Assembly (NCBI GenBank): GCA_963708025.1
Contig: CAVPSB010000023.1
Span: 98,000-161,999 of the forward strand
Length of the DNA stretch: 64,000 bases
From: an uncultured Candidatus Rokubacteria bacterium
Lineage (GTDB): Bacteria > Methylomirabilota > Methylomirabilia > Rokubacteriales > DASRDR01
Reading direction: 5' to 3'
In this document: in pieces, positions 10,521 to 25,866 of the stretch
Layout: the number at the start of each line of letters is the position of its first letter
Numbering within the stretch: the first letter of the stretch is position 1
Translations under genes and position numbers: made by a program
Notes under the pieces: generated by a model
Database searches by the model: none
What the model saw: the letters and a program-made list of their open reading frames with translations, nothing else
Told to the model about the DNA's origin: nothing

Positions 10521-10857
10521 CGGGCCGAGCCCGGAGATCGCTCGGCGTGGGCATCCTCGCGGGCTGCCGTACCTGGATTGTGGATGCGGGCCACTCGGTG
10601 AGATCGAGGACCAGGACGGGCGCCGATCCCCTCGTCTAGCGGCCGAGCCGCGTACCCCGCTGTCAAGGCGCCGCCGGCGCGGCATCATCGCGAGGTGACG
10701 CTCTCCCCGGTGGTCGATCCCTGGCGGCCGTCACCGGGGACCTGCTGGCGCCGGGCCCGTGTCGGCGATCTTCCACGACTACCGGGCGAGCCACCATCTG
10801 CCGTCCACGCTCCCTCGTGCGACACGCCCGGGCTCGGCGGTCGCCGATGCCGCCGGG

Positions 10858-11778
10858 CTGGGGACGATCGAGATCAAGGCCATGACCGACGAGGGCTACC
10901 CCGAGCGGCGGTGACGGCCGCCTCGGCCACGATCGGCCCCATCATCCCACCCAGCGTGCCCCTCCTCTTCTACGGGGTGATGGCCGACGTCTCCATCGGC
11001 CGCCTCTTCCTCGGCGGCTTCGTCCCGGGCCTGCTGATGGCGGCGGCGCTCATGGCCATGATCGTCGGGATACCGCCGCCGCGGCTATCCGCGGCACCCG
11101 GCGCCGACCTTCCGGGTCTTCGCGACGAAGACCCGCCGCGCCTTCCTCTCGCTCATGACCCCGGTGATCCTCTTCGGTGGGATGCTGAGCGGGGTCTTCA
11201 CGCCCACCGAGGCCGCCTTCGTGGCGGCGGTGTATGCGCTGGTGCTGGGCCTCTGGATCCATCGCGAGCTCCACTGGCGGGACCTGCCGCGGCTGTTCCT
11301 CGAGACGGTGGAGACCAACGCGGTCGTGCTCATGCTGGTGATGACGTCCTCGCTGTTCGGCTGGATCCTGGCCCGGGCCCAGGTCCCCCAGCAGCTCGGC
11401 GCCTGGATGCTCGGGGTCTCGCAGAGCCCGCTCGTGATCCTGCTGCTGATCAACGTCTTCCTGCTGATCGTCGGCTGCTTCATGGAGGCCTTGGCGGCGC
11501 TGGTCATCCTGGTGCCGGTCTTCCTGCCGGTGATCCAGCAGCTCGGGATCGACCCGGTGCACTTCGGGCTGGTCATGGTCCTCAACCTGATGATCGGCAC
11601 CCTGACCCCGCCGATCGGCATCGTCCTGTTCGTGGTGGCGCGCGTCGCCGACCTCCCCTTCGAGACGGTGACCCGGGCGACGGCGCCGTTCCTGGTGCCG
11701 CTCGTCGTCGTGCTGGGTCTGATCACCGTCTTTCCGTCGATGGTGCTGTTCGTCCCGCGGCTGGTCCTCGGCCCCTGA
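10858..11778 (+). pseudogene. TRAP transporter large permease (DctM) remnant, 5'-truncated with frameshifts
   Basis: LGTIEIKAMTDEGYP / AASATIGPIIPPS / FTPTEAA / LGIDPVHFG / TPPIG split over different frames; N-terminus and dctPQ absent. Confidence 0.8.
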
Positions 11779-11966: not shown

Positions 11967-13502
11967 ATGGCCGAGCCGTTCAGCTACGACGTCATCGTCC
12001 TGGGGGGGGCCTTCAGCGGGGCCGCCACCGCCCTCCTCCTCCGCCGCGAGTGTCCCCAGCTTCGCCTGCTGATCGTGGAGAAGGCGCCGCGGTTCGACGA
12101 GAAGGTCGGCGAGGCCACCACCGAGATGTCCGGCCTCTTCCTGACCCGGCGGCTCGCCCTCTGGGAGCACCTCGAGCGGGAACAGCTGCCCAAGGAGGGC
12201 CTGCGCTACTGGTTCCACAACGAGCGGGTCCACGGGCACGCCGAGGCGAGCGAGACGGGCGCCTACCACCGGAGCGCGGTCCCCTCCTTCCAGCTCCGCC
12301 GCGACGCGCTGGACGAGCACCTGCTGGCGACCGCGGTGGCCGAGGGCGCGGCCCTCCTCCGCCCCGCGAAGGCACGTGACGTGACGCTGGGAGCGTTCGC
12401 CCACCAGGTGACGGTCGAGCGCGAGAGCGGGGAGACGGTGACCGCCCACTGCCGCTGGCTGCTGGACGCCACCGGCCGCGCCACGGTCCTCGGGCGGAAG
12501 CTCGGGCTGATCGACCGGAACGAGGCGCATCCGACCGCGGCGATCTGGGCGCGCTGGACCGACGTCCGCCACGTCGACGACCTGGTGTCCCGCGAGATCC
12601 CGGCGCTCGGCCGTCACGCTGTCGCCTCCCGGCGGCTGGCCACGAACCACTACGTGGGCTTCGGGTACTGGGTGTGGGTGATCCCCCTCGGCAACGGCGA
12701 GACGAGCATCGGGGTCGTCTTCGACAAGCGCCTGCTCCGCCTCCACGAGAGCCGGAGCCGGGAAGAGGATTTCCGGGGCTTCCTCGGGTCGATCCCGGCG
12801 CTGGCCGAGCTGCTCAAGGGCGCCACGCTGCGCCGCGAGGACCTCCGCTTCTACGCGCACCTGCCCTACGTGACCCGCCAGTACATGGGGGAGGGCTGGG
12901 CCCTCCTCGGTGACGCCGCCGCCTTCCTCGATCCCTATTACTCGCCGGGGCTCGACCACGCCGCCTTCACGGCCGAGGCGACCACCGCGATCGTCAAGGC
13001 CGACGCGGCCGGGGAGGACGTCGGTTCGCGAATCCGCGAGCACAACGCGACGTTCCTGCGCTCGTACCACCGCTTCTTCCGTGCGGTGTACCGGGACAAG
13101 TACTTCTACCTGGGCGAGCAGGACCTCTGCTCGGCGGCGTTCCTCCTCGACACCGTGCAGTACTATCTGTTCGTCGTCATCCCCGCCTACCGGAAGCCCG
13201 GCCGCTTTCCCTGGATGCCGGTCCTGGGTCCGAAGCCCGCGCTCCTGAGCTATCGCCTGATGGACGCCTACAACCGGCGGTTCAAGGCCCTCGCGCTGCT
13301 GCGGCGCGCCCGGGGCGAGGCCGGCCACCGGAACGACGGCCGCCACCTGAAGGCCTACTTCAACCTGCGGGGGGCGCCCTTCCGGATGCTCGGGCGCGGC
13401 CTGCGGCTGTGGCTCGCCGCGGAAGTGGATGGGCTGCGGCTCCGCGTCCGCGCGCGGTCCGGCGGGCCGCGTCCCACGGACGGCGAGGCGGTGGCTCCGT
13501 GA
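11967..13502 (+). CDS. Flavin-dependent halogenase-like protein (Trp-halogenase superfamily)
   Basis: Rossmann GGAFSG, KVGEAT, PKEGLRYWF, WVWVIP (WxWxIP halogenase motif), GDAAAFLDPYYSPG; true start is ATG 11967, not 10695. Confidence 0.8.
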   Translation: MAEPFSYDVIVLGGAFSGAATALLLRRECPQLRLLIVEKAPRFDEKVGEATTEMSGLFLTRRLALWEHLEREQLPKEGLRYWFHNERVHGHAEASETGAYHRSAVPSFQLRRDALDEHLLATAVAEGAALLRPAKARDVTLGAFAHQVTVERESGETVTAHCRWLLDATGRATVLGRKLGLIDRNEAHPTAAIWARWTDVRHVDDLVSREIPALGRHAVASRRLATNHYVGFGYWVWVIPLGNGETSIGVVFDKRLLRLHESRSREEDFRGFLGSIPALAELLKGATLRREDLRFYAHLPYVTRQYMGEGWALLGDAAAFLDPYYSPGLDHAAFTAEATTAIVKADAAGEDVGSRIREHNATFLRSYHRFFRAVYRDKYFYLGEQDLCSAAFLLDTVQYYLFVVIPAYRKPGRFPWMPVLGPKPALLSYRLMDAYNRRFKALALLRRARGEAGHRNDGRHLKAYFNLRGAPFRMLGRGLRLWLAAEVDGLRLRVRARSGGPRPTDGEAVAP

Positions 13503-14380
13503 GGGTGATCGCCCGGGGCGTGGGGATCGCGCTCCTGCTGGCGGGCTGCGCCGCCTCCGGACCCGTCGATCCCGGCGGCAGGCCCGAGCCGTCACCGGTC
13601 CAGCTTCGCCAGACCGTCGAGGACCTGGGCCGCGAGGTCCGCGACCTGCGCGCCCAGGTCGAGGCGACACGCCGGGTGGCGGTGGGATACCAGGATCTGG
13701 CCGGCCTGCGAGCCGAGCTGGAAGCGGTGCAGGCGGCGCTCCAGGCGCTCATCCGGGACCTGGAGCAGCGGCAGCTCGAGGCGTTCCAGGCGGTGGATCG
13801 CCGGCTGGCCACGATCGGAGGCCGGATCGGTGAGCTGGCGGCGGCCGCCCGCCGTGCCGATGCCGGAGCGGGGGAGCGGAGCCAGCCGAGCGGCCCGGCC
13901 GAGGGCCCGCCGGCGCCGCCGCCGTCCCCGGGTCCGGCGCGGGCCGAGGCGACGGCCCCGGCTCAGGCGACGGCGACCCCGGTCACGGCGCCGGCCGAGC
14001 CGGCCAGGGAGCCGGGCAAAGAGCCGGCCGAGGGGCCGGGGATACCGCGCGGGCGGACCATCCAGCGGGTCAGCCCCGCCGAGGCGTCCGGCGAGACCCG
14101 CGTCAGCGTCGAGGCCGACGGCCCGCTGAGTCCCCGAGCCTCCACGCTGGCCGATCCGCCGCGCGTCATCCTCGACTTCGAGAACGTCGCGTTCGGCTTC
14201 GGCCGGACTCCTGTCGAGGTGGATGGGCCCATCCTCGAGCGGATCCGCTTCATCCAGCTCCGGGCGGTCCCGACCCCGGTGATCCGGCTGGTCCTGACGC
14301 TCAAGCGGTCGGTGCCGTACTGGATCGAGCCACAGGCCCGTGGCCTGATCGTCCACCTCGGAAGCGCCCCGCCCCGGTAG
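13499..14380 (+). CDS. Lipoprotein with coiled coil, Pro-rich linker and C-terminal AMIN domain
   Basis: Lipobox LAGC; LADPPRVILDF...VIRLVLTL typical of AMIN domains; GTGA overlap with the halogenase stop. Confidence 0.75.
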   Translation: MRVIARGVGIALLLAGCAASGPVDPGGRPEPSPVQLRQTVEDLGREVRDLRAQVEATRRVAVGYQDLAGLRAELEAVQAALQALIRDLEQRQLEAFQAVDRRLATIGGRIGELAAAARRADAGAGERSQPSGPAEGPPAPPPSPGPARAEATAPAQATATPVTAPAEPAREPGKEPAEGPGIPRGRTIQRVSPAEASGETRVSVEADGPLSPRASTLADPPRVILDFENVAFGFGRTPVEVDGPILERIRFIQLRAVPTPVIRLVLTLKRSVPYWIEPQARGLIVHLGSAPPR

Positions 14381-14424
14381 CATCCCTCGGGGATCGCTCA
14401 CCCCTCTCATCCCACATCTTGCGG

Positions 14425-14455
14425 TTGCCCGTACTACCCAACGCGTGTTTAGTAT
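14425..14455 (+). promoter_or_regulatory. Candidate promoter and SOS/LexA-type operator upstream of imuA
   Basis: AT-richer dyad TACTA-N13-TAGTA enclosing CAAC-GCGT-GTTT (resembles GAAC-N4-GTTY) overlapping a -10-like TAGTAT. Confidence 0.4.
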
Positions 14456-14511
14456 GAGCACGCGGTCGCGCTGCCCCGTGGGCCGGGCGCCGGCCGCCCG
14501 ATCTCGAAGCC

Positions 14512-15210
14512 ATGAGCGTCTCACGCGTCGATCCGGCCGAGCTGGGCGCCCTCCCCGCCGTGGCGCCGTTCGTGGTCCGGCCCGGCTGCGTCCCCGGGCG
14601 ACTCCCGGCGGCCGCGACCGGGCTGTCGTCGCTCGATGCGCTCCTCGGCGGCGGCTTCCCCCGCGGACGGATCTCGGAGGTCGTGGGCCCCCGGGGCTCC
14701 GGGCGGACCAGCGTGCTCCTCGGGAGCCTGGCGCGCGCGACCGGGAGCGGCGCGCTCGCCGCCCTCGTGGACGTGACGGACCGGCTGGATCCCGCCTCGG
14801 CCCGGGCGGCTGGCCTGACGCTCGGGCAGCTCCTGTGGGTCCGGTGCGGCGGGGATCTCCGGACGGCGCTCCAGGCGGCCGATGTGATCGTGCGCGGCGG
14901 CGGCTTCGACCTGGTGGCCGTGGACCTCGGCGAGCTCCCCCCGTGGCGGCTCCAGCGCGTCCCGGCGGCCGTCTTCGTCCGGCTCCAGCGGGCGGTCGAG
15001 GGGACGCCGACGACGCTCGTTCTCGCCGGGACTCGACGGGTGGCGGGGAGCATGGCCACCGCGGCGGTCACCCTGTCCCGGACGCGACCCCGGTGGCAGC
15101 GTGGCGGCCCCGGCCTCCTGGCCGGGCTGGCGACGGAGGCGCGGCTCGTCCGCTCCCGCGAGCGCGCTCCGGGCGCCTCGGCGGCACTGGTGTGGACCGC
15201 GGGTGAATGA
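14512..15210 (+). CDS. imuA: ImuA / RecA-like translesion accessory protein
   Basis: TGLSSLDALLGGGFPRGRISEVVGPRGSGRTS; first gene of an imuA-imuB-dnaE2 cassette. Confidence 0.85.
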   Translation: MSVSRVDPAELGALPAVAPFVVRPGCVPGRLPAAATGLSSLDALLGGGFPRGRISEVVGPRGSGRTSVLLGSLARATGSGALAALVDVTDRLDPASARAAGLTLGQLLWVRCGGDLRTALQAADVIVRGGGFDLVAVDLGELPPWRLQRVPAAVFVRLQRAVEGTPTTLVLAGTRRVAGSMATAAVTLSRTRPRWQRGGPGLLAGLATEARLVRSRERAPGASAALVWTAGE

Positions 15211-15384
15211 ATGGGCGCCTCCGGCTCCCCCCTCCCCCCAGCCAAAGGCTCAAGGCCATCGAAGGATCGGGTAGGCGGGAGGTTCTACGATCCCCGGCTC
15301 CGCACATGAATGGGCGCGCCTCCGGCTCCCCCCTCCCCCCAGTGGGTGGGGGAGGGGGGCTGGGGGGGTAGGAGGGAGGTTCTA
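15211..15384. repeat. Two tandem family B repeat copies between imuA and imuB
   Basis: ATGAATGGGCGC(GC)CTCCGGCTCCCCCCTCCCCC occurs at about 15207 and 15306, each unit ending GGGAGGTTCTA. Confidence 0.85.
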
Positions 15385-15385
15385 A

Positions 15386-16864
15386 TTGTTCGCGTGTCTG
15401 TGGGCGCCCCACTTCGCGGCGGCGGCGCTGCTGCGGAGCGATCCCGGACTGCGCGACCGGCCGGTGGCCGCCCTCGCGGGGACCGAGACGACCCGCACGG
15501 TGTTCGAGCCGAGCCCGGAGGCGTGGGCCGCTGGCGTCCGGCCGGGCATGAGCGCCGGCGAGGCGGTCACGCGCGCCCCCGGCCTCGTCGGCCGGCTGCG
15601 TGACCTCGACGCCGAGCGCTCGGCGGCGGCCGCGCTCCTCGACGTCGCCATGGCCACCTCGCCGCGCGTCGAGGCCGCCGCGCCCGACCGCGTTCACCTC
15701 GACCTGACCGGGCTCGAGCTCTTCGGTGACGAGCGGCAGATCGGCGAGCGGCTCGCGCTGGGAGCCGCCAGCCTGGATCTGCCGGCGCGCGTTGGCATCG
15801 CGGGGAGCCGCACGGCCGCCGGCCTGGCGACGCGCGCGGCGGCGGGGGTGACGATCGTCCCGGCCGGGGAGGAAGCGGCCTTCCTCGCGCCGCTCCCGGT
15901 GGCGCTCCTCGACCCGCCGGCCGAGCTGGCGACGGCGCTCGAGCGGTGGGGAGTCCGCACCCTGGGCGAGCTGGCGGCGCTCCCGGCGGCCGGGCTTCTC
16001 GCGCGGCTCGGCGTGGAGGCCGCATCGCTCCGGGCCCGCGCGCGGGGTGGGGACGACCAGCCCTTCGTCCCGTACGTGGCCGCCGAGCCGTGCGTCGAGG
16101 CGCTCGCCCTGGACTGGGAGGTCACCCACCTCGACGGGCTCGTCTTCGTCCTTCGCCATCTCCTCGAGCGGCTGGCGGCGCGCCTGGCGCTCTCCGAGCA
16201 GGGCGCCCGCGCCCTCGCGCTGACCGTGGGCCTCGCCGATGGGGCCGTGCACCGGCGGCGACTCGCGCTCGTGGCGCCGCTCCGCGAGGCCCGGACGCTC
16301 CTGGCCCTCCTCCGGGCCGATCTCGACGGGCTCACGCTGCCCGCCCCCGTCGTCTCCCTCGCCGTGGAAGCTGAGCCGGCGCGACTCCGTCCGGCGCAGC
16401 CGGATCTGCTCACCCCGAAGCGCCCGAGCCCGCACGAGCTGGCCCGGACGCTCGGCCAGCTCGGCGCGCTCGTCGGCCCGGACCGGGTTGGCGCCCCCGC
16501 GCTGGGGGACACCCATCGGCCGGACGCGGTCGGCGTGGTCCCGTTCACCGGGGCGGTCGCGCGCCAGGCCGCGGTCGCGGCCCTGACGCTCTCCGACGCC
16601 GGCCGGCTGGCCTGCTGCCGCTTCGCCCCGCCGCTGCCGGCGGTGGTCACCGCGCGCGACGGCCAGCCGCGCCATGTCGAGGCGCCGGGGGTGGCGGGCG
16701 CGGTCGCCGCCTGCGCCGGGCCGTGGCGGACAGCGGGGGAGTGGTGGACCGACACCATCTGGTCGCGCGAGGAGTGGGACGTGGCCCTGGCCGACGGCGC
16801 CGTCTACCGCCTCGTCCTCGACCGCGCCCGCGGCGCCTGGACAGTCAACGCCGTCTACGACTGA
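15386..16864 (+). CDS. imuB: ImuB, catalytically inactive Y-family polymerase homologue
   Basis: GVRPGMS..EA, SPRVE, WGVRTLGEL, QPDLL clamp-like motif, DTHRPD, C-terminal GPWRTAGEWW...W; TTG start. Confidence 0.85.
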   Translation: MFACLWAPHFAAAALLRSDPGLRDRPVAALAGTETTRTVFEPSPEAWAAGVRPGMSAGEAVTRAPGLVGRLRDLDAERSAAAALLDVAMATSPRVEAAAPDRVHLDLTGLELFGDERQIGERLALGAASLDLPARVGIAGSRTAAGLATRAAAGVTIVPAGEEAAFLAPLPVALLDPPAELATALERWGVRTLGELAALPAAGLLARLGVEAASLRARARGGDDQPFVPYVAAEPCVEALALDWEVTHLDGLVFVLRHLLERLAARLALSEQGARALALTVGLADGAVHRRRLALVAPLREARTLLALLRADLDGLTLPAPVVSLAVEAEPARLRPAQPDLLTPKRPSPHELARTLGQLGALVGPDRVGAPALGDTHRPDAVGVVPFTGAVARQAAVAALTLSDAGRLACCRFAPPLPAVVTARDGQPRHVEAPGVAGAVAACAGPWRTAGEWWTDTIWSREEWDVALADGAVYRLVLDRARGAWTVNAVYD

Positions 16865-17069
16865 GCGGCCCCTCAGAATCCGACCGTTTTGTGGTGCATC
16901 AGGTGGGACCTGGCTCCGGCTGTGACGCAATCGCCGAGGATGGGTTAGCGCGGATAAGCCCGGATGGGGGTCCGCGGGCAGGGACCGTGAAGCGGGTGGG
17001 CGCAGCTCCCCCGGCCCGACTGAGCGCGAACGGCTCATGCACAGGCAGGGATAGGCACGGGAGGGCATC

Positions 17070-17585
17070 ATGACCGATCTCATCCCGATTGGGCGGATTG
17101 CGCGATCGATTCTCGTCATTCGTGGGCACCGCATCATGCTGGACGCGGATCTGGCTGAGCTCTACGGGGTCCGGACGAAGGCGCTCAATCAGGCTGTCAA
17201 GCGCAACCGAGAACGCTTTCCTGAGGATTTCATGTTCCGGCTGACTCGGGAGGAAAAGGACGAGGTGGTCACCGAGTGTGACCACCTCCGACGACTCAGG
17301 TTCTCCCCCGTGTTGCCCCACGCCTTTACCGAGCACGGTGCCATCATGCTCGCCAGCATCCTGAACAGCCCCGCTGCCGTCTACACCAGCATCCAAGTCG
17401 TCCGCGCGTTCGTACGGCTCCGAGAAGCGATGGCCTCCCACAAGGACCTGGCCCGCAAGCTCGAGGCGCTGGAAAAGAAGTACGACGCACAGTTCAAGGT
17501 AGTGTTCGATGCGATCCGGCGGCTGATGGAGCCACCTCCGCGACCGACGGTGAAGATCGGGTTTCGCCCGGAGAGCGACCGCTAG
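17070..17585 (+). CDS. ORF6N-domain DNA-binding protein (phage antirepressor-like)
   Basis: IRGHRIMLDADLAELYGV.TKALNQAVKRNRERFPEDFMFRLT..E, AFTEHG, LEKKYDAQFKVVFDAIR, KIGF; less GC-biased codons than neighbours. Confidence 0.9.
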   Translation: MTDLIPIGRIARSILVIRGHRIMLDADLAELYGVRTKALNQAVKRNRERFPEDFMFRLTREEKDEVVTECDHLRRLRFSPVLPHAFTEHGAIMLASILNSPAAVYTSIQVVRAFVRLREAMASHKDLARKLEALEKKYDAQFKVVFDAIRRLMEPPPRPTVKIGFRPESDR

Positions 17586-17881
17586 TGCCGTTCCAACTAG
17601 CCCCGATCGGCGATTACCGGAGACCGATCGCCATACTCGGACCGCTCGGACAGCGACGTTTGGGGGATCGCATGCGTTCGAATGACGGCCACCCACGGGG
17701 CGTTGACATCCACCCGTGGAGCGAGCTTGGCGCGGCGCCAGACCTGGGGCTCGCGTGGTCGCGATCATTCGACGAATCGCCGATCGGGGCTAGATGAGCC
17801 AAAATGGACAAGCGATTCTTGAAGCACCGACGTACCGCATTCCTCGAACGCACTGGCTAGAACAAGTTGGAACGGCACTAG
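17582..17881. mobile_element. Non-autonomous MITE with CTAG ends containing a second nested MITE (17597-17793)
   Basis: Perfect inverted repeats CTAGTGCCGTTCCAACT (17582-17598) / AGTTGGAACGGCACTAG (17865-17881); inner CTAGCCCCGATCGGCGATT (17597-17615) / AATCGCCGATCGGGGCTAG (17775-17793). Confidence 0.8.
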
Positions 17882-17894
17882 CCAAGCGGCGGCG

Positions 17895-20800
17895 ATGCCC
17901 TACGTCGAGCTCTCCGCCGCCAGCGCCTTCAGCTTCCTCGAGGGCGCCTCCCAGCCGGAGGCTCTTGCCGAGCAGGCGGCGGCGCTCGGCTACCCGGCCC
18001 TCGCGCTTGTCGACGCCGACGGGCTCTACGGCGCGGTGCGCTTCTACAAGGCCGCGACCGAGGCCGGCGTCCGCCCACTCGTCGGCACCGCGCTCACCCT
18101 CGACGACGGCGCGCGGCTGCCGGTCCTCGTCGAGACGGCGGAGGGCTACCGGAATCTCTGCCGCCTGCTCACCCGCGTCAAGTTCCGGGCGGCCAAGGGA
18201 AGGGCCCGCGCCCGGCTCGAGGACTTGGAGGGCGAGACCGGCGGGCTCGTCTGCCTGACCGGCGGGGTCGAGGGCCCGCTGGCGGCGGACCTCGGGGCCG
18301 GGCGCCGGGACGCGGCGCGCCGAGCCCTCGAGCGGCTGGTCGGCCTCTTCGGCCGCGGCCGGGTGTACGTGGAGCTCCAGCGGCACTGCACGCGCGAGAG
18401 CGAGCTGCGGACGCGCCGGCTCCTCGAGCTGGCCGGCACGCTCCGCCTGCCGGTGGTCGCGACCAACGGCGTCCGCTACGCCACGCCGCCCGAGCGCCGG
18501 GTCCTCGACGTCTTCACCGCGGTCCGCCACAAGACGACGCTGGACGCCGCCGGCCGGCGCCTCGAGCCGAACCTCGAGCGCTGGCTCAAGCCTCCCGCCG
18601 AGATGGCGCGGCTCTTCGCCGACCAGCCGGCGGCGGTGGCCGAGACGGCCGAGCTGGCCGCGCGCCTGACCTTCACGCTGAAGGACCTCGGTTACCGCTT
18701 CCCGGACTACCCGGTGCCCGGCGGCGGCTCCCCGGGCGCCCATCTGCGCGCGCTGACCGAGGCCGGGGCGCGCGAGCGCTACCGGACGGTCACCGAGCGC
18801 GTCCGCCGCCAGCTCGCCCGTGAGCTGGACCTGATCGAGACGCTCGACCTGGCGGGCTACTTCCTGATCGTCTGGGACATCGTCCGCGAGTGCCGGGCGC
18901 GCGGGATCCTCGTCCAGGGCCGCGGCTCGGCGGCCAACAGCGCGGTCTGCTACAGCCTCGGCATCACCGCGGTCGATCCCGTCGGGATGGATCTCCTCTT
19001 CGAGCGCTTCCTCTCCGAGGAGCGCCACGAGTGGCCGGACATCGACCTCGACCTGCCCTCCGGTGACCGCCGCGAGGCGATCATCCAGTACGTCTACGAG
19101 CGCTACGGGCGGACGGGCGCGGCGATGACGGCCAACGTCATCACCTACCAGCCGCGCCGCGCCGCCCGCGAGGTGGGGAAGGTCCTCGGCTTCCCGCCCG
19201 ACCTCCTCGACCGCCTCGCGAGGTTCCTGCCCAACTTCGAGTACCGCGACCCGACCGACCGGGACCCCGCCCGCCACCTCGCCCGGGTCGGCCTCGACCC
19301 CGCCCACCCGCGCGTCCGCGGCTTCGCTGAGCTGTGGGCACGCGTCCAGGGGCTGCCACGGCACCTCGGCCAGCATTCGGGAGGCCTGGTCCTCTGCGCC
19401 GGCCGTCTCGACGAGATCGTGCCGCTCGAGCCGGCGACCATGCCGGGGCGCACCGTGGTCCAGTGGGACAAGGACGACTGCGCCGACATGCGGATCGTGA
19501 AGGTGGACCTCCTGGGCCTCGGCATGATGGCGGTCCTCGAGGACGCCCTCGTCCTGTGCCGGGAGGCCGGCCACGACGTGGACCTCGCCCACCTGCCGCC
19601 GGACGACCCGGCGGTCTACGCCGCGCTCCAGCGGGCCGACACGATCGGCGTCTTCCAGGTGGAGAGCCGCGCCCAGATGGCGACCCTGCCGCGGCTCCGC
19701 CCCGAGCGCTTCTACGACCTGGTGGTGGAGGTCGCGATCATTCGCCCGGGCCCCATCGTCGGCGACATGGTGCATCCCTACCTCGCCCGCCGCGCGGGCC
19801 GGGCGCCGGTCGCGTATCCCCATCCATCGCTCGCGCCAATCCTCGAGCGCACGCTCGGCGTCCCGCTCTTCCAGGAGCAGCTCCTCCGTATGGCGATGGT
19901 CGCCGCCGGCTTCACCGGCGGCGAGGCCGAGGAGCTGCGCCGGGCCCTGGGCTTCCGGCGCTCGGAGGCGCGGATGAAGGCGGTCGAGGCGAAGCTCCGC
20001 GCCGGCATTGCGCGGAACGGGATCGCCGGCGAGGCGGCCGAGGAGATCGTGCGGGCCATTACCTCCTTCGCGGAGTACGGGTTCCCCGAGTGCGTGGTGG
20101 GCGATACGCGCGTGCTCGACGCCGACACCGGACGCCGAGTTCGGATCGATGATGTCGCGGCCGGACGCGTGCCGATTTCGAGCACGCTGGCCTGTGACGT
20201 GCACCTGCGACTCCAGAAGCGTCGTGTCCTCGGCGCTACGGCGAGCGGTCCCCGGATGGTCTACCGGCTCCGCACCGCTCTCGGCCGAGAGCTTCTGGCC
20301 ACGAGCGAGCACCCGCTGCTGACGATGAGCGGCTGGCGCCCACTCGGCGAGCTTCGCGTCGGCGATCATATCGCGGCGGCCCGCGCACTTCCTGGCCTGG
20401 GGCGGAAACGTTGGCCGCGCCACCACCTGATCGCTCTGGCCGACCTCATCGCCGAGGGCAACCTGTGTCACCCCACGACGATGTACTTCTACACGACAGA
20501 TTGCCGGCAACGCGACGAGTTCGTGGGCGCGGTCGAACAGTTCGACAACACGCGCGCTACCATTGCTCGTCACCGGAGCTGTTTCAGCGTGCACGTTCGC
20601 CGCCGGGACAGAGGGCGTTCCAACGGGGCGATCGAGTGGGCGAAGACGCTCGGAATCTGGGGGTGTGGCGCGCGGGAGAAATACCTGCCCGACGAGGTGT
20701 TCGAGTTACGGGACGCCGATCTCGCGCTGCTGCTCGCTCGTCTGTGGGAGGGCGACGGCTCGCTCTCGTCTAGGGGTCACGCCACATACGACACTGCGTC

Positions 20801-22265
20801 CCACCGGCTCGCTGAGGACGTTCAGCACCTCCTCCTCCGACTCGGGATCGTGTCTCGGCTCTACCGGCGTATTCGCCCGTATCGGGACCGGCAGGTTATC
20901 TGCTTCGTCGTCACCGTGACCGGCCGGGGTAACCTCCGACGGTTTTATCGTCGAATCGCGAGTCGATTTCTCGACTTCCGAAAGCGTCAGATGGCTCGAA
21001 CGCTGGCCGCGTCAGAGGCTCTTCGGGCCTCGCGGGACATCGTCCCCGTGGGGGTCAAGGCGCTCATCGATGCCGAACGTCGGCGCCACGGTATGACCTG
21101 GGAGGCTGTCGGCCATCGAGCCGAAGTGTCCGTGCGAGCCATCTGCTCGCCGGATCGGTCGAAGCGTGGGTATCGCCGGTGGGTAATTGTCCGGCTGGCC
21201 GAAGCCTTCGACTCGCCCGCGCTCGGCGACCTCGGGACATCCGACCTCTACTGGGACCGGATCACGGCGATCGAACCGATCGGCGTTCAGCCGACGTACG
21301 ACTTGCGCATCGAGGGCGATCACAACTTCCTGGCCAACGATCTCGTCGTCCACAACTCTCATGCCGCCAGCTTCGCGCTGCTGGCCTACGCCAGCGCGTA
21401 CCTCAAGGTCCACTACCCGGCCCAGTTCTACGCCGGGCTCCTCAACAACCAGCCGATGGGCTTCTACCACCCGGCCACCCTCGTCAAGGATGCCCAGCGC
21501 CACGGGCTCGAGATCCGGCCGGTCGACGTCAGCCGCTCGGAGTGGCCGTCGACCGTCGAGGACCGCGCGGTGCGGCTCGGCCTGATGACCGTGAAGGGCT
21601 TCCGCGAGGCGGCCGGCCGGCGGCTCGAGGACGCCCGGCGGGCGCGGCCCTTCGAGTCGGTGGACGACCTCGCGGCGCGGGCCGGGCTCGTGCGGGAGGA
21701 ACTGGTCACGCTCGCCGACATCGGGGCGCTCGGCGCGCTCGGGCTCACGCGGCGGGGTGCCTTGTGGGAGGTCGAGCGCGCGGCCCGGCCCCCGGGGCCC
21801 CTCTGGAGCGGGCAGGCCAGTCTCCAGGAGCCCTCCCCGCTCCGGGAGATGACCGCGGAGGAGCGGCTCGTCGCCGACTACCGGGGAACCGAGCTGACCG
21901 TGGGGCCGCATCCCATGGCCTTCCGGCGGGCCGACCTCGCGCGGCGGGGCGTCACGCCGGCGGCCGGCCTTCGCGCGCTGCCCGATGGCGAGCCGGTCCG
22001 GGTGGCCGGGCAGGTCATCGTCCGCCAGCGCCCCGGCACCGCCAAGGGCTTCGTGTTCCTCTCGCTGGAGGACGAGACCGGCGTCGCCAACGCGATCGTC
22101 CGCCCCCCGCTCTTCGACCGCGAGCGCGCGGTCATCGTCCACGAGCCGTTCCTGCTGGTCGAGGGGACCCTCCAGCACCAGGACGGCGTCGTCTCGATCC
22201 GCGCCCGGCGCGTCTGCCCGCTGCCCCCGCTCGGCGCCCGCGTCCCCTCCCACGACTTCCGCTGA
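17895..22265 (+). CDS. dnaE2: Error-prone DNA polymerase DnaE2 (ImuC), intein-containing precursor of 1456 aa (1034 aa after splicing)
   Basis: SAFSFLEGAS PHP start, GRGSAANS, WPDIDLD, PRHLGQHSGG, QRPGTAKG, C-terminal SHDFR signature of DnaE2. Confidence 0.95.
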   Translation: MPYVELSAASAFSFLEGASQPEALAEQAAALGYPALALVDADGLYGAVRFYKAATEAGVRPLVGTALTLDDGARLPVLVETAEGYRNLCRLLTRVKFRAAKGRARARLEDLEGETGGLVCLTGGVEGPLAADLGAGRRDAARRALERLVGLFGRGRVYVELQRHCTRESELRTRRLLELAGTLRLPVVATNGVRYATPPERRVLDVFTAVRHKTTLDAAGRRLEPNLERWLKPPAEMARLFADQPAAVAETAELAARLTFTLKDLGYRFPDYPVPGGGSPGAHLRALTEAGARERYRTVTERVRRQLARELDLIETLDLAGYFLIVWDIVRECRARGILVQGRGSAANSAVCYSLGITAVDPVGMDLLFERFLSEERHEWPDIDLDLPSGDRREAIIQYVYERYGRTGAAMTANVITYQPRRAAREVGKVLGFPPDLLDRLARFLPNFEYRDPTDRDPARHLARVGLDPAHPRVRGFAELWARVQGLPRHLGQHSGGLVLCAGRLDEIVPLEPATMPGRTVVQWDKDDCADMRIVKVDLLGLGMMAVLEDALVLCREAGHDVDLAHLPPDDPAVYAALQRADTIGVFQVESRAQMATLPRLRPERFYDLVVEVAIIRPGPIVGDMVHPYLARRAGRAPVAYPHPSLAPILERTLGVPLFQEQLLRMAMVAAGFTGGEAEELRRALGFRRSEARMKAVEAKLRAGIARNGIAGEAAEEIVRAITSFAEYGFPECVVGDTRVLDADTGRRVRIDDVAAGRVPISSTLACDVHLRLQKRRVLGATASGPRMVYRLRTALGRELLATSEHPLLTMSGWRPLGELRVGDHIAAARALPGLGRKRWPRHHLIALADLIAEGNLCHPTTMYFYTTDCRQRDEFVGAVEQFDNTRATIARHRSCFSVHVRRRDRGRSNGAIEWAKTLGIWGCGAREKYLPDEVFELRDADLALLLARLWEGDGSLSSRGHATYDTASHRLAEDVQHLLLRLGIVSRLYRRIRPYRDRQVICFVVTVTGRGNLRRFYRRIASRFLDFRKRQMARTLAASEALRASRDIVPVGVKALIDAERRRHGMTWEAVGHRAEVSVRAICSPDRSKRGYRRWVIVRLAEAFDSPALGDLGTSDLYWDRITAIEPIGVQPTYDLRIEGDHNFLANDLVVHNSHAASFALLAYASAYLKVHYPAQFYAGLLNNQPMGFYHPATLVKDAQRHGLEIRPVDVSRSEWPSTVEDRAVRLGLMTVKGFREAAGRRLEDARRARPFESVDDLAARAGLVREELVTLADIGALGALGLTRRGALWEVERAARPPGPLWSGQASLQEPSPLREMTAEERLVADYRGTELTVGPHPMAFRRADLARRGVTPAAGLRALPDGEPVRVAGQVIVRQRPGTAKGFVFLSLEDETGVANAIVRPPLFDRERAVIVHEPFLLVEGTLQHQDGVVSIRARRVCPLPPLGARVPSHDFR
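20091..21356 (+). mobile_element. Intein with LAGLIDADG homing endonuclease (422 aa) in dnaE2
   Basis: YGFPE|CVVGD...ATSEHPLL (block B)...LADLIAEG and LLARLWEGDG (LAGLIDADG)...YDLRIEGDHNFLANDLVVHN|SHAASF; codon usage visibly less GC-biased. Confidence 0.95.
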
Positions 22266-22306
22266 AGTGCCCTCAGCGCGCCATCGGCACGCCATCGGCA
22301 CGACGA

Positions 22307-22335
22307 TTGACGCCGGGAGATCGCCCGGGTAGACT
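22307..22335 (+). promoter_or_regulatory. Sigma70-type promoter for the TPP riboswitch operon
   Basis: TTGACG-17 nt-TAGACT immediately upstream of the aptamer. Confidence 0.75.
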
Positions 22336-22342
22336 GGCGGCG

Positions 22343-22450
22343 GATCGCGGGAGCTCGGGCAAGCCGAGCTGAGAGGGCAGCCAGGGGACGTGGAATCTCT
22401 CGCTGCCGACCGCTGGAACCTGACCTGGGTAATGCCAGCGCAGGGAGCTC
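22343..22450 (+). ncRNA. TPP (thiamine pyrophosphate) riboswitch aptamer
   Basis: GCGGGAG...GCTGAGAG, GGCAGC/GCTGCC stem, GACCGCTGGAACCTGACCTGGGTAATGCCAGCGCAGGGAG match the THI-box consensus. Confidence 0.92.
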
Positions 22451-22454
22451 GCCG

Positions 22455-22488
22455 ACGCCGTGCCGCGACTCCGCGGTGCGGCGTTTTT
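22455..22488 (+). terminator. Intrinsic terminator of the riboswitch expression platform
   Basis: ACGCCGTGCCGCG-ACTC-CGCGGTGCGGCGT hairpin followed by a T run, upstream of SD GAGGAG. Confidence 0.75.
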
Positions 22489-22506
22489 CGTTTCGAGGAG
22501 GAGACG

Positions 22507-23391
22507 ATGACCAGACGGTTCGTGCTCGTGGTTCTGGCGCTCGGGATCGGGGCGATGCTGACCGGAGGCGTGAGCACTGCTGACGCCCAGCCGAAGTCCC
22601 TCCACCTCGTGCTGACGCCATCGCAGAAGCCGACCGACCTCCTGGTGGCCGGCGAGAAATTCGGCGTCGCGCTCGGGAAGCTGGTCGGCATTCCGGTTCG
22701 GGTGACCGTCGCCTCCGACTACGCGGCCGTGGTGGAGGCGCTCCGTAACAAGACTGCCGACCTCGCGTTCCTGCATCCTGCCGGCTACGTGCTCGCCAAC
22801 CGCGAGGCGAAGGCGATGATCATCGCCCAGGACCAGTGGCACGGCAACACGTCGTACCGGTCCCGGATCTTCGTCCGCAAGGACTCGGGGATCAAGACCC
22901 TGGAGGAGCTTCGGGGCAAGACGATCGCCTTCGTCGATCCGACGAGCACGTCGGGATACGTGTGGCCGATGGTCCTGCTCATCAAGCGCGGCCTGGTCCA
23001 GAACCGCGATCCCAAGACGTTCTTCAGGGAGGCGGTCTTCTCCGGCGCCCACGATGCCGCGCTCCAGGCCCTGCTCAATGGCCACGTCGATGCGCTCGCG
23101 TCGTTCGATCAGGCGCGCGAGCAGTACCTGAAGGACCCGGCCGAGCGCGAGAAGGTGACCTGGGTGGCCGAGACCGATCCCATCCCGGAGGGCGGCATCG
23201 CGGGCCGCGAGGGCCTCGACCCCCCGGTCGTGGCGAAGGTCAAGGCGGCGCTGCTGCAGATGCGGGGACCCGAGTATGCCCAGCTCCTCAAGGACCTCTA
23301 CGACATCGACGGCTTCGAGCCCGTCGACGACCGGATCTACGAGCCGGTCCGGGCGGCCATGGACATGCTGGGCTGGCGGCCCAAGCGGTAG
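22507..23391 (+). CDS. phnD: PhnD-family (phosphate/phosphite/phosphonate) ABC substrate-binding protein
   Basis: Signal peptide; DYAAVVEALR, Y.SRIFVRKDSGI, AFVDPTSTSGY, GAHDAAL; SD GAGGAG before ATG 22507. Confidence 0.85.
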   Translation: MTRRFVLVVLALGIGAMLTGGVSTADAQPKSLHLVLTPSQKPTDLLVAGEKFGVALGKLVGIPVRVTVASDYAAVVEALRNKTADLAFLHPAGYVLANREAKAMIIAQDQWHGNTSYRSRIFVRKDSGIKTLEELRGKTIAFVDPTSTSGYVWPMVLLIKRGLVQNRDPKTFFREAVFSGAHDAALQALLNGHVDALASFDQAREQYLKDPAEREKVTWVAETDPIPEGGIAGREGLDPPVVAKVKAALLQMRGPEYAQLLKDLYDIDGFEPVDDRIYEPVRAAMDMLGWRPKR

Positions 23392-23396
23392 CGGGC

Positions 23397-23491
23397 GGGC
23401 CGATGAGCGTCGCATCGCGTCGTCGTTCGGATGGCCTTCGGCCTGTGGGCGCTGCTCGCTCCTCGGCCCGCCCCAGAGAACTTGACTCATC
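23397..23491. repeat. Family A repeat, internally shortened copy
   Basis: GATGAGCGTCGCA...GGCCTTCGGCCTGTGGGCGCTGCTCGCTCCTCGGCCC...GAACTTGACTCATC. Confidence 0.85.
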
Positions 23492-23556
23492 TGCCGTGAG
23501 GCCGGCGGTTCAAGGAACCTGAGGACGCCGCGGCGCGACGGGTCCCGGCACCGCCG

Positions 23557-24303
23557 ATGATCGAGGTGGAGGGCCTTCGTGTCGTCCTTCCGCCGGACAC
23601 CGTGGCGCTCTACGGCGTCGACCTCACCATCGAGGCCGGCGAGCGGGTGATGATCATCGGCCGGAGCGGCGCGGGCAAGACGACCTTTCTCCGCTCGATC
23701 AACCGGCTCGTCGAGCCGACCGCCGGGACCATCCGGGTCGCCGGGCGTCCGGTGACGGGCGCCGGGCCCACCGAGCTCCGTCAGGTCCGGCGCCAGATCG
23801 GGATGATCTTCCAGCAGTTCAACCTGGTTCGCCGGGTCTCGGTGCTGACCAACGTCCTGGCCGGGCGGCTCGGCTACGTGCCGCCGCTGCCGAGCCTCCT
23901 CGGCCGCTTCCCACCGGCGGACCGGGCGCTCGCGTTGGACTGCCTGGCCCAGGTGGGGCTGGCCGACTTCGCGGACCGCCGGGCCGACACCCTCTCCGGC
24001 GGCGAGCAGCAGCGGGTAGCGATCGCTCGCGCGCTGGCCCAGTCGCCGAGCGTGATCCTGGCCGACGAGCCGACGGCGAGCCTCGACCCGCAGCTCACCG
24101 GGAGCATCATGGGAATCCTCAAGCGGATCAACGAGACGCGCGGGCTCACCCTGGTGGTGAGCCAGCACCAGCTCGAGACCGCGCTCGACTACGCCACGCG
24201 CATCGTGGGGTTCCGGGCGGGGCACGTCTGCTTCGATGGGCCGCCGGCCGGGGTCACGTCCGCGGTGGTCGAGGCCATCTACGGGGAGGAAGCGCGGAGA
24301 TGA
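23557..24303 (+). CDS. phnC: PhnC-family ABC ATP-binding protein
   Basis: [53 protein letters not shown]. Confidence 0.9.
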
Positions 24304-25047
24304 CGCGCTGGCGGGCAGCGCTCCTGGTCGGCGTCGCGGCACTCGCCTGGGCTGCCTGGGACACCGGCGCCGATCCGGTGCGCTTCGTCTATGGCACCCC
24401 GTGGATGCTCGACTTCGTCCGGCGCTCGCTGCCGCCGGACTTCCGGGTGTTGAGGCCGGCCCTGGAGGGCGCCGTCAAGACGTTCGAGATCGCGCTCCTC
24501 GGCACCGCCGCCGCGGCGGCCCTCGCGGTGCCGCTCGGCTTCCTGTCGGCCCGGAACGTCGCTCCGCCGGCGCTCTTCTACCCCGCCCGGGCCGCGCTCA
24601 ACTTCCTGCGGAGCATCGACACGCTGGTGTACGCCCTCCTGTTCGTGGCGGCGGTGGGGCTGGGCCCCTTCCCCGGGGTGCTGGCCGTCGTGGCGTACAC
24701 GACGACCTCGCTGGCCAAGCTCTACTCGGAGACGATCGAGGGGATCGACCCGGGGCCCGGCGCCGCGATCACGGCGACCGGCGCGACGCGCCTGCAGGTG
24801 CTGCGCTTCGGCGTGCTGCCCCAGGTGCTGCCGCTGTTCCTCTCCTATATCCTCTACCGGCTGGAGTCGAACATCCGGGCGGCGACCGTGCTCGGGTTCG
24901 TCGGCGCGGGCGGGATCGGGTTCTACCTCCAGACCTACCTGCGCATGATCGACTACCCGGCGGCGTCGACGGTGCTGCTCGTCACCATCGTCATGGTGAT
25001 GGTGGTTGAACTTCGCCAGCTCGCGCCTCCGCGCCCGCCTCATCTAG
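24300..25047 (+). CDS. phnE: PhnE-family ABC permease; +1 frameshift at about 25009, natural stop probably TAG 25045-25047
   Basis: AVGLGPFPG, KLYSETIE, LESNIRAATVLGFVGAGGIG; deleting one A gives the usual end VDFASSRLRARLI*. Confidence 0.85.
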
Positions 25048-25065
25048 TCCTTTTCGAGGGAGCTC

Positions 25066-25140
25066 GGATCAGGTCCTCCGGCTCCCCCCTCCCCCCAGTG
25101 GGTGGGGGAGGGGGGCTGGGGGGGTGGGAGGGAGGTCTCA
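25066..25140. repeat. Family B repeat between convergent phnE and pncA
   Basis: CTCCGGCTCCCCCCTCCCCCCAGTGGGTGGGGGAGGGGGGCTGGGGGG...GGAGGGAGGT, nearly identical to 15320-15380. Confidence 0.85.
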
Positions 25141-25866
25141 AAAGTCGATGTCGGCCGACTGGATGCGCTTGACGCCGGCGCCCGTCATGTCCTGCCACGC
25201 CTTGCCCAGGGAGCCCCCGGCGTCGATGCCGCGGGTGGCGTCCTCGATGACGTAGGCCTCGAAACCGGCCTTCCGCGCGTCGAGGGCCGACCAGGCCACG
25301 CAGAAGTCGGTGGCGAGCCCCACGAAGAACGTGCGCCCGAGACCACGCTCCTTCAGATAGCCGGCCAGCCCCGTCGGCGTCTTGCCGTCGGCCTCGTAGA
25401 AGGCCGAGTACGAGTCCACCTGCTGGCGATAGCCCTTCCGGATGATGAGCTGGGCGTGCGGAATCTGGACGTCCTTGTGCAGGTCGGCCCCCGACGTTCC
25501 CTGGATGCAGTGGTCGGGCCAGAGGACCTGGGTGCCGTAGGGGAGCTGGATCGTCTCGAACGGCTTCTTGCCGGGATGCGACGACGCGAACGAGACGTGG
25601 CCTGGTGTGTGCCAGTCCTGGGTGAGCACGACGTTCGGGAAGGCCCGGCCGAGCCGGTTGACGAGGGGGATGATCTGGTCCCCTTCCTTGACCGGCAGGC
25701 TGCCGCCGGGGACGAAGCAGTTCTGGACGTCGATGACGAGCAACACGTCCTGAGCGCCCGGCTTGGTCTTGCCCTGGGCGAACGCGGCCCGGAGGCCTCC
25801 CATGCCGGTCAGGACGAGGGTGCCGGCGGCGCACGTGAGGAACTGGCGGCGAGTCGGCATGTTCAT
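25138..25866 (-). CDS. pncA: Nicotinamidase/pyrazinamidase with twin-arginine (Tat) signal peptide
   Basis: TRRQFL...AFA signal; IDVQN, TQDWH..H, WPDHC, RKG...DSYSAF, GLATDFCV catalytic motifs. Confidence 0.9.
   Translation of the reverse strand: MNMPTRRQFLTCAAGTLVLTGMGGLRAAFAQGKTKPGAQDVLLVIDVQNCFVPGGSLPVKEGDQIIPLVNRLGRAFPNVVLTQDWHTPGHVSFASSHPGKKPFETIQLPYGTQVLWPDHCIQGTSGADLHKDVQIPHAQLIIRKGYRQQVDSYSAFYEADGKTPTGLAGYLKERGLGRTFFVGLATDFCVAWSALDARKAGFEAYVIEDATRGIDAGGSLGKAWQDMTGAGVKRIQSADIDF

Follow-up and report, generated by a model that had tools for sequence, protein, structure and literature searches.

Why should a transporter of the kind that databases label phosphonate-binding stand behind an RNA element that responds to thiamine pyrophosphate (TPP)? 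The question is raised by a locus of an uncultured Candidatus Rokubacteria bacterium, contained in a stretch of 64,000 nucleotides of contig CAVPSB010000023.1 (positions 98,000 to 161,999; GenBank assembly GCA_963708025.1), which is called the window below and whose own numbering is used throughout. On its forward strand a promoter-like site, a TPP riboswitch aptamer, a terminator-like hairpin and a Shine-Dalgarno (SD) sequence are followed, in this order, by homologues of phnD, phnC and phnE, for which the best explanation would be a single operon encoding a binding-protein-dependent ATP-binding cassette (ABC) importer. The host is a metagenome-assembled genome of the Methylomirabilota (Rokubacteria), G000, of 8.17 Mb in 49 contigs, with a completeness of 99.7% and a contamination of 8.2%. 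The answer we propose, which we consider somewhat probable on the strength of comparative sequence analysis, is that the operon encodes a TPP-repressed ABC importer of a compound of the thiamine pathway, probably a phosphorylated one: either thiamine monophosphate (TMP) or TPP, or the phosphate of hydroxymethylpyrimidine (HMP-P). Few markers of a thiamine-related function are as reliable as TPP riboswitches, and the new transporter families discovered behind them have, to our knowledge, all turned out until now to carry thiamine or a precursor.

The first element to be established is the riboswitch itself. The initial annotation, made from the letters of the sequence, had described a THI-box aptamer between a sigma-70 promoter and an intrinsic terminator, and each of the three is found. 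The search of the whole 64-kb window with Infernal and the Rfam models returns RF00059 (E 4.2e-8) as the sole family above its gathering score, and the genome-wide search gives the identical match. The promoter-like site, which lies 8 nt 5' of the aptamer, is unique within 22150-23650, where shuffled sequences predict 0.1 such sites; both of its hexamers are unchanged in all 13 leaders that were aligned, and the same site occurs in the loci L004 and L025. The terminator-like hairpin, with its T-run, begins 4 nt 3' of the aptamer and forms part of the leader's minimum-free-energy fold (z -3.04); a hairpin nearly identical to it is also found in L025. In the metatranscriptome run X18, a contig of 219 nt covers 22396-22611 and another lies at 22826-23071; they are not counted as evidence of expression, given their small share of words and the possible carry-over of DNA.

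The second element is the association of this riboswitch with the gene. The orthologous binding protein is present in 138 of the 251 genomes of the phylum (E <= 1e-30): 17 of 20 in the family of the window (f1), 105 of 159 in f2, 12 of 21 in f7, the single genome of f12 and none of the 20 of f13. In f1, a TPP match of 60.8-71.3 bits stands directly 5' of the gene in 13 of the 17 relatives, the loci being matched to genomes by identical proteins, and thus in 14 of 18 genomes when the window is included. Seven of the 12 f7 loci have a match of 42-47 bits (E 2e-6 to 3e-5) that spans about 160 nt and is longer than the model; among the remainder one is weak (32 bits) and four have none, one of these with only 231 nt of upstream sequence. 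The f12 genome carries the highest-scoring aptamer (79 bits), and it is followed by two tandem genes for PhnD-like binding proteins (L063 2237-4349, G048:C192), 65% and 56% identical to the binding protein of the window, P0003. Furthermore, a metagenome scan seeded with the sister clade yielded 80 loci, four of which (L115-L118) have a TPP element according to a custom covariance model and then to Rfam; all four belong to the same protein clade, being 86-100% identical to f7 or 68-70% to the f12 sequence. The riboswitch-transporter link is real, and it is conserved in no fewer than three families of the phylum and also in another metagenomic lineage. With the custom model (R1), which has only 14 base pairs, so that divergent aptamers could escape it, and which recovered 11 of 11 positive controls, two of them weakly, no TPP element was found in the 35 outgroup metagenome loci with at least 150 nt upstream (the 8 nearest also have none by Rfam), in the 24 loci of sigma-54 type or in 10 further clade loci of f2-like identity, 8 of them nearest to the f2 query and 2 to the window. 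Two distant homologues from the family f8 have no TPP element either.

The way in which the aptamer is coupled to the gene is not the same everywhere. The transcriptional layout, with aptamer, terminator and a separate SD, is shared by the window and G246, which have the same 14-pair hairpin, and the terminator-like site of G228 is weak, with 6 pairs only. In the genus g4, the GGGAGG at the 3' end of the aptamer doubles as the SD, with the ATG within a few bases, and in the fold of the leader the region of the start codon is paired with the 5' leader; in most relatives it is at the 3' end of the aptamer that the SD and the ATG lie. The switch of g4 is thus an integral part of the gene's translation start, which argues against a chance juxtaposition.

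What, then, is the protein behind the switch? The assignment of the three genes as phnD, phnC and phnE homologues stands. P0003 matches PF12974 with 215.1 bits over profile positions 2-241 of 242 and passes the subfamily cut-off of TIGR01098 (203.9 against 112), and its partners meet the equivalog cut-offs of PhnC (TIGR02315, 302.3 against 266.1) and PhnE (TIGR01097, 265.9 against 216.7). P0003 itself remains under the cut-off of the PhnD equivalog for alkylphosphonate binding (TIGR03431, 172.5 against 261.1), and no ThiB/TbpA model is among its 8 NCBIfam matches. Its best match of solved structure is PtxB (5lv1, 94.7 bits), and all the source names shown for its homologues say phosphonate or phosphite, the label under which the initial annotation expected such a system to be hidden.

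The residues of the binding site were mapped by HMMER and BLASTP alignments to Te_PtxB and E. coli PhnD, with the residue roles taken from excerpts of Bisson et al. 2017 (PMC5700983) and of the 2025 paper on GpxB (PMC12718374). The contacts of the phosphoryl head are all kept: the STSG motif (147-150, of which S147-T148-S149 are contacts) and H182, as had been read from the sequence at first, and also Y72 and Y117. The capping tyrosine of Te_PtxB (Y208), to which PtxB owes its specificity for phosphite, aligns to G229 and its aspartate partner D22 to S39, and the pair E177/D205, which holds the amine of 2-aminoethylphosphonate in E. coli PhnD, aligns to Q202/G229. Position 229 is Gly or Ala across the whole clade, D201 is invariant, and E228 is invariant apart from the second f12 binding protein. 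Among 20 sequences of f1, f7 and the first binding protein of f12, Y72, S147, S149 and H182 are invariant and T148 is replaced by Ala or Ser only; these are sequences of switch-bearing lineages, but four of them have no detectable switch. The same groups have D109 and Y117, where f2 has N109 and F117 (14 of 14 sequences), a change that corresponds to a single event on the tree.

These proteins form a group of their own. In a search of 1.84 billion cluster representatives, there is a drop in score at the border of the group: 330 bits (56% identity) is still reached inside it, and the next full-length proteins do not exceed 182 bits or 40% identity. In a quick maximum-likelihood tree of 125 sequences, all the Rokubacterial orthologues constitute one clade inside the PhnD/PtxB family, a point that the initial annotation had proposed to check, with a Shimodaira-Hasegawa-like approximate likelihood ratio (SH-aLRT) support of 100 and a stem of 0.36; f12 and f7, which have the switch, are basal, and f2, which does not, is the sister of f1, which does.

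The genomic context adds a metabolic argument. ThiC (PF01964) is found in 3 of the 20 f1 genomes, 119 of 159 in f2 and 16 of 20 in f13; these family-wide tallies take in G034, G044, G076, G217 and G218, which are marked unpublished and on which no individual claim is built. It was not found in G000 by the PF01964 search, at 99.7% completeness, and most genomes of the family of the window appear to be auxotrophic for hydroxymethylpyrimidine (HMP). Among the 30 genomes of f1 and f7 that bear the orthologue, the 21 with a clear switch comprise 19 without ThiC and 2 with it, and the 9 without a clear switch comprise 4 without ThiC and 5 with it; in f7, none of the 7 switch-bearing genomes (completeness 76-97%) has a ThiC match. 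ThiE and ThiG are each present in 17 of 20 f1 genomes, and ThiD, ThiE, ThiG and ThiL are kept in the switch-bearing genomes where they were checked. In G000, ThiD and ThiL are found together with a second ThiE and several homologues of TenA; ThiM, TPK, ThiT and PnuT are lacking, and no protein of ThiB type passes the cut-off. Of the five genomes checked for TPK and ThiM, four, G000 included, gave no match for either, and G245 gives weak matches only.

G000 possesses two TPP switches in all, at the phnD locus and before thiS-thiG-thiE-thiO on contig C7, so that phnDCE is its only TPP-controlled transporter. The second of these loci, switch and genes together, lies at C7:44559-47600 (L003 1060-4100), and its switch scores 53.2 bits, just below the cut-off. 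The operon behind it carries frameshifts (one in thiS, three in thiG, at least one in thiE, and a split thiO), the flanking genes are full-length and the ThiG of relatives are all intact; it may be either decaying or affected by local assembly errors. At C16:34585-34807 there is a remnant of a CytX-like (HMP) permease, its last 85 codons or so in two frames, preceded by unrelated sequence. In relatives, the other TPP switches are found at several places. G242 (f1) has two more, before thiD-thiE-thiO-thiSG and before an intact CytX-like permease with its own switch, and G079 (f2) has switches before thiC and thiG-thiE. G003 and G023, both ThiC-less f7 genomes, have a third one before the genes for a zinc-dependent alcohol dehydrogenase (ADH), a LuxE-like acyl-protein synthetase, a LuxC-like acyl-CoA reductase, an ABC ATPase, a permease and an NMT1/THI5-like binding protein; in G005 (L190) the riboswitch and the ADH gene alone precede the end of the contig. 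This LuxE/LuxC operon could be devoted to the salvage of an imported carboxylate, converted by way of the aldehyde to an alcohol such as HMP. The coexistence of separate TPP-controlled importers of pyrimidine type suggests that the cargo of the PhnD-type system is something else.

The model we propose integrates these observations. When TPP is low, transcription would proceed from the conserved promoter through the leader, and the binding protein, the permease and the ATPase would be made. When TPP is high, the aptamer would fold, the terminator would form and the transcript would be aborted, thereby shutting off the operon; in g4 and most relatives, the folded aptamer would instead bury the SD and the start codon. 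The promoter, aptamer and hairpin, their conservation, the gene family, the ThiC distribution and the residue patterns are observed; what we infer from them is the switching by TPP, which way transport runs and what the cargo is. The importer would bring in a compound of the thiamine pathway and thereby compensate for the missing pyrimidine branch, as suggested by the failure to find ThiC in G000. In its proposed working, the closest known system is ThiBPQ (TbpA-ThiP-ThiQ) of the enterobacteria, in which a TPP riboswitch likewise controls an ABC importer dependent on a binding protein, and whose cargo includes phosphorylated thiamine. It differs in its parts, since P0003 matches no ThiB/TbpA model of NCBIfam and belongs to PF12974, and its permease and ATPase are PhnE and PhnC equivalogs.

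Since the head contacts are kept and a glycine occupies the position of the PtxB cap, the likeliest cargo is a phosphate ester whose tail is bulky; it would probably consist of a phosphate head and a tail that is possibly cationic or an aminopyrimidine. A precedent is given by GpxB, a member of the PhnT family 3.A.1.9, which according to the excerpts of its description (PMC12718374) binds glycerol-1-phosphate as well as glycerol-3-phosphate after loss of the aromatic cap, with an enlarged pocket; a PhnD-family protein without a cap can therefore bind phosphate esters. The tail contacts reported there, Arg223 and Thr247, correspond in P0003 to Q202 and G229, a mapping made indirectly through the E. 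coli positions, and the regulation of the two systems is different. Once inside, TMP would enter metabolism via ThiL, TPP would need no further step and HMP-P would enter via ThiD. The presence of ThiL without TPK or ThiM makes TMP directly usable, and in the five genomes checked free thiamine is left without a known entry route. We would place TMP/TPP slightly ahead of HMP-P, because separate pyrimidine importers coexist and no kinase for free thiamine is visible, and HMP-P agrees just as well with the ThiC pattern and with the retention of ThiE and ThiG. Thiazole phosphate, which the initial annotation had also listed, finds no support, ThiG being kept as mentioned above.

Several observations weigh against the importer of a phosphorylated thiamine compound and have to be set beside it. 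The presence of extracellular phosphorylated thiamine or HMP-P in soil is a premise of the model and is assumed. The aptamer of the window exceeds the Rfam cut-off by only 1 bit, its score being lowered by about 14 nt inserted into the loop of P3, and all the f7 matches lie under that cut-off. A search by eye for a complement of the 5' arm of the terminator gave no convincing antiterminator. The expectation that orthologues would carry the switch, which holds for most of f1 and f7 and for f12, fails elsewhere: none of 40 f2 loci (24 at 67-78% identity, 16 at 53-60%) has a TPP match at E <= 0.1, and four f1 genomes are without the switch, so that one of the outcomes named in the initial annotation as refuting its proposal occurs in part. 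These are G245, which is the closest relative (81% identity) and has no match at E <= 0.1; G247, with no match upstream of its orthologue; G231, where an aptamer-like sequence with an altered P4/P5 region scores 16.6 bits with the custom covariance model; and G240, where nothing is left but the promoter and the aptamer's 3' half. Judged from this distribution, the link between switch and gene would be dispensable and would have been lost repeatedly. The association with the absence of ThiC is not strict either, as G241 and G246 (f1) and G048 have both the switch and ThiC; moreover, the genomes are related and the pattern may rest on few evolutionary events. Finally, the retention of ThiE and ThiG implies that the import of the whole vitamin is not the sole route of supply, a point that fits HMP-P and TMP alike.

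Among the alternatives, the one that survives best, which we regard as unlikely, is a TPP-repressed importer with an unphosphorylated cargo, namely HMP, aminomethylpyrimidine (AmMP), formylaminomethylpyrimidine (FAMP) or free thiamine. Such a system would be a functional analogue of ThiXYZ, the TPP-riboswitch ABC system of genomes that need the HMP moiety, whose binding protein ThiY has the same type II fold class and belongs to a family of the same Pfam clan as PF12974. The head site would then hold another polar group or a co-bound anion. This possibility accords with the pattern of ThiC loss, which indicates a demand for pyrimidine, with the presence of TenA, ThiD and ThiE, and with the fact that unphosphorylated forms are usually those reported in the environment. 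The partial match of P0003 to the NMT1/THI5-like family PF09084 of ThiY (26.1 bits, residues 61-146) also speaks for it. However, this match is equally present in the switchless f2 orthologues and was rejected as a ThiY-type signal because it does not discriminate, and the true ThiY-type proteins of the phylum, which coexist in the same genomes, score 170 bits. The conservation of six phosphoryl-head residues in the switch-bearing lineages would be hard to explain without an oxyanion head, CytX-like or ThiZXY-type systems are already under TPP switches of their own, and free thiamine in particular would meet no kinase route in the five genomes, the only TPK/ThiM matches being the weak ones of G245.

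It is quite unlikely, in our view, that the operon encodes an ordinary importer of phosphite, phosphonates or organophosphates for phosphorus nutrition and that the riboswitch is a leftover, for instance of a thiC leader. The family assignment, the equivalog scores of PhnC and PhnE and the conserved head site would all be expected of such an importer; in sequence, the phnD-type aptamer hardly differs from the aptamers of thiC and cytX type in the phylum, and the switch has decayed or disappeared in several lineages, the f2 orthologues working without it. But a leftover would hardly persist before the same gene across proteins that are just 60-80% identical, in at least three families, with two different intact expression platforms fitted to the gene. 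P0003 shares with PtxB (PtxABC) and E. coli PhnD (PhnCDE) the family, the fold and the head site of STS-H and Tyr, and it differs from both by the absence of the capping Tyr and of the E177/D205 pair, by a score below the PhnD equivalog cut-off, by the lack of catabolic partners and by its control by a TPP riboswitch. No C-P lyase, phosphonatase or phosphite dehydrogenase gene is found within about 10 kb of the locus, the first and the last of these having been noted as missing from the adjacent genes in the initial annotation; the C-P lyase protein PhnJ is absent from all five genomes checked, PtxD, PhnX, PhnW and PhnA not having been searched genome-wide. G000 moreover holds, on contig C30, a second complete PhnD-family ABC system, which has no switch. 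A last and very unlikely alternative, that the cargo is a thiamine-related compound not considered here, for instance an antivitamin or a degradation product that bears a phosphonate or phosphate group, or that f2 changed its ligand after loss of the switch, could draw on the N109/F117 of f2 against the D109/Y117 of the switch-bearing groups and on the unconventional salvage chemistry hinted at by the unexplained TPP-controlled ADH-LuxE-LuxC-ThiZXY operon, but the data point to no specific candidate and the replacement of D/Y by N/F happened just once on the tree.

As to how the operon acquired and lost its switch, the simplest history would be an ancestral link that disappeared later from f2, from the sigma-54 group and from a small number of f1 genomes. 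The link may also have been gained several times independently; the phnD-type aptamer is nearly identical to the thiC-type aptamers of f2 and the cytX-type aptamers of f1. The only annotated f2 locus of low identity (L059 5339-7683, G183:C6) has its gene behind a sigma-54 response regulator, with no adjoining ABC genes. This subclade of 53-60% identity, which is common in soil metagenomes, may have a sensory role. In two other f2 genomes, G083 and G079, a cyclic di-GMP (c-di-GMP-I-GGC) riboswitch scoring about 73 bits separates the phnD orthologue from the gene that follows it, which is an AMP-binding enzyme by annotation in one of the two loci.

The features are collected in the table.

Features of the phnDCE locus, in window coordinates, and of two other riboswitch-associated features, in locus or contig coordinates
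Feature	Coordinates	Strand	Basis or remark
Sigma-70-type promoter-like site	22307-22335	+	TTGACG, 17-nt spacer, TAGACT
TPP riboswitch aptamer, RF00059	22343-22450	+	Rfam, 55.3 bits against a gathering score of 54.3
Intrinsic-terminator-like hairpin and T-run (expression platform)	22454-22495 (hairpin 22454-22485)	+	14 pairs, 10 of them G-C
Shine-Dalgarno sequence GAGGAGGAG	22495-22503	+	Sequence reading; 4 nt before the ATG at 22507
PhnD/PtxB-family periplasmic binding protein P0003, 294 aa, signal peptide	22507-23391	+	PF12974, TIGR01098
phnD-phnC spacer, 165 nt, with a repeated element found genome-wide	23392-23556	+	blastn-short
PhnC-type ABC ATPase, 248 aa	23557-24303	+	TIGR02315, PF00005
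PhnE-type permease	24300-25047 (canonical stop 25045-25047; open reading frame as assembled to 25172)	+	TIGR01097
G/C-rich palindromic repeated element 3' of phnE, outside the coding capacity of the operon	25060-25145	not assigned	389 matches in the genome
ADH-LuxE-LuxC-ThiZXY operon	L189, L191, L194, L195; G003:C204:18800-28500, G023:C168:250-8450		
c-di-GMP-I-GGC riboswitch	L043 2526-2608; L048 2515-2597 (= L056 4220-4302)		Next gene on the strand opposite to phnD

The end of the operon requires a comment. The position at which it was first placed is that of the canonical phnE stop, but in the assembled sequence one extra A at about 25008-25009, some 13 codons before that stop, shifts the frame, so that the reading frame continues into the repeated element. 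The PhnE of relatives ends 12 residues beyond the site of the shift, an ending that the window also yields when read in its +1 frame; the extra A is missing from one contig each of two independent public runs, X1 and X5. We read it as a probable assembly error or private mutation. The element within the phnD-phnC spacer, with 303 blastn-short matches in the genome, accounts for the length of this spacer, which is about 50 nt in the relative G242. The depth of contigs in soil runs is about 2000 over the element 3' of phnE, against about 50 in its flanks, and is very high at 23367-23463. Both intergenic elements would be similar to repetitive extragenic palindromes (REP) or to miniature inverted-repeat transposable elements (MITE).

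The neighbours of the operon are of other kinds. Upstream, a mutagenesis cassette (13409-22262) comprises an imuA-like gene (RecA fold), an imuB-like gene (IMS) and dnaE2, whose product of 1456 aa contains an intein with a LAGLIDADG endonuclease domain; downstream, an isochorismatase-family gene and a malate synthase gene are found. Further upstream (10695-11775), the DctM gene of a tripartite ATP-independent periplasmic (TRAP) transporter is apparently in two frames (profile positions 133-187 and 218-413), another possible assembly indel.

In conclusion, the proposed function would bring the PhnD/PtxB family into the field of vitamin salvage. In a search of the full-text literature, subscription papers and regulon databases lying outside its scope, we found neither a PhnD-type importer related to thiamine nor a link between a TPP riboswitch and phnD, in agreement with the initial annotation, which knew of no thiamine transporter in this family. 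The family (TCDB 3.A.1.9) has been characterised, according to the excerpts of PMC12718374, almost only with small oxyanions of phosphorus and arsenic, phosphonates and glycerol phosphates. If our model is true, it would join the binding-protein families that serve the import of thiamine-pathway compounds, and a systematic error of annotation, perpetuated by the labels phosphonate and phosphite, would be corrected. The same aptamer, joined to a transcriptional platform in some genera, to a translational one in others and decaying in a few, constitutes a natural experiment. Could the clade be the first of the PhnT family to have a binding protein specific for TMP/TPP or HMP-P, and the principal way for Rokubacteria without ThiC to acquire vitamin B1 units in soil? 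This extended proposal, drawn from the same comparisons, we hold as possible and rather doubtful. The Rokubacteria are a major phylum of soil, abundant and uncultivated, and the locus gives a testable handle on their vitamin dependence; if the extended proposal is true, thousands of phosphonate-binding labels in soil metagenomes would be wrong, and phosphorylated thiamine would be a public good exchanged in soil.

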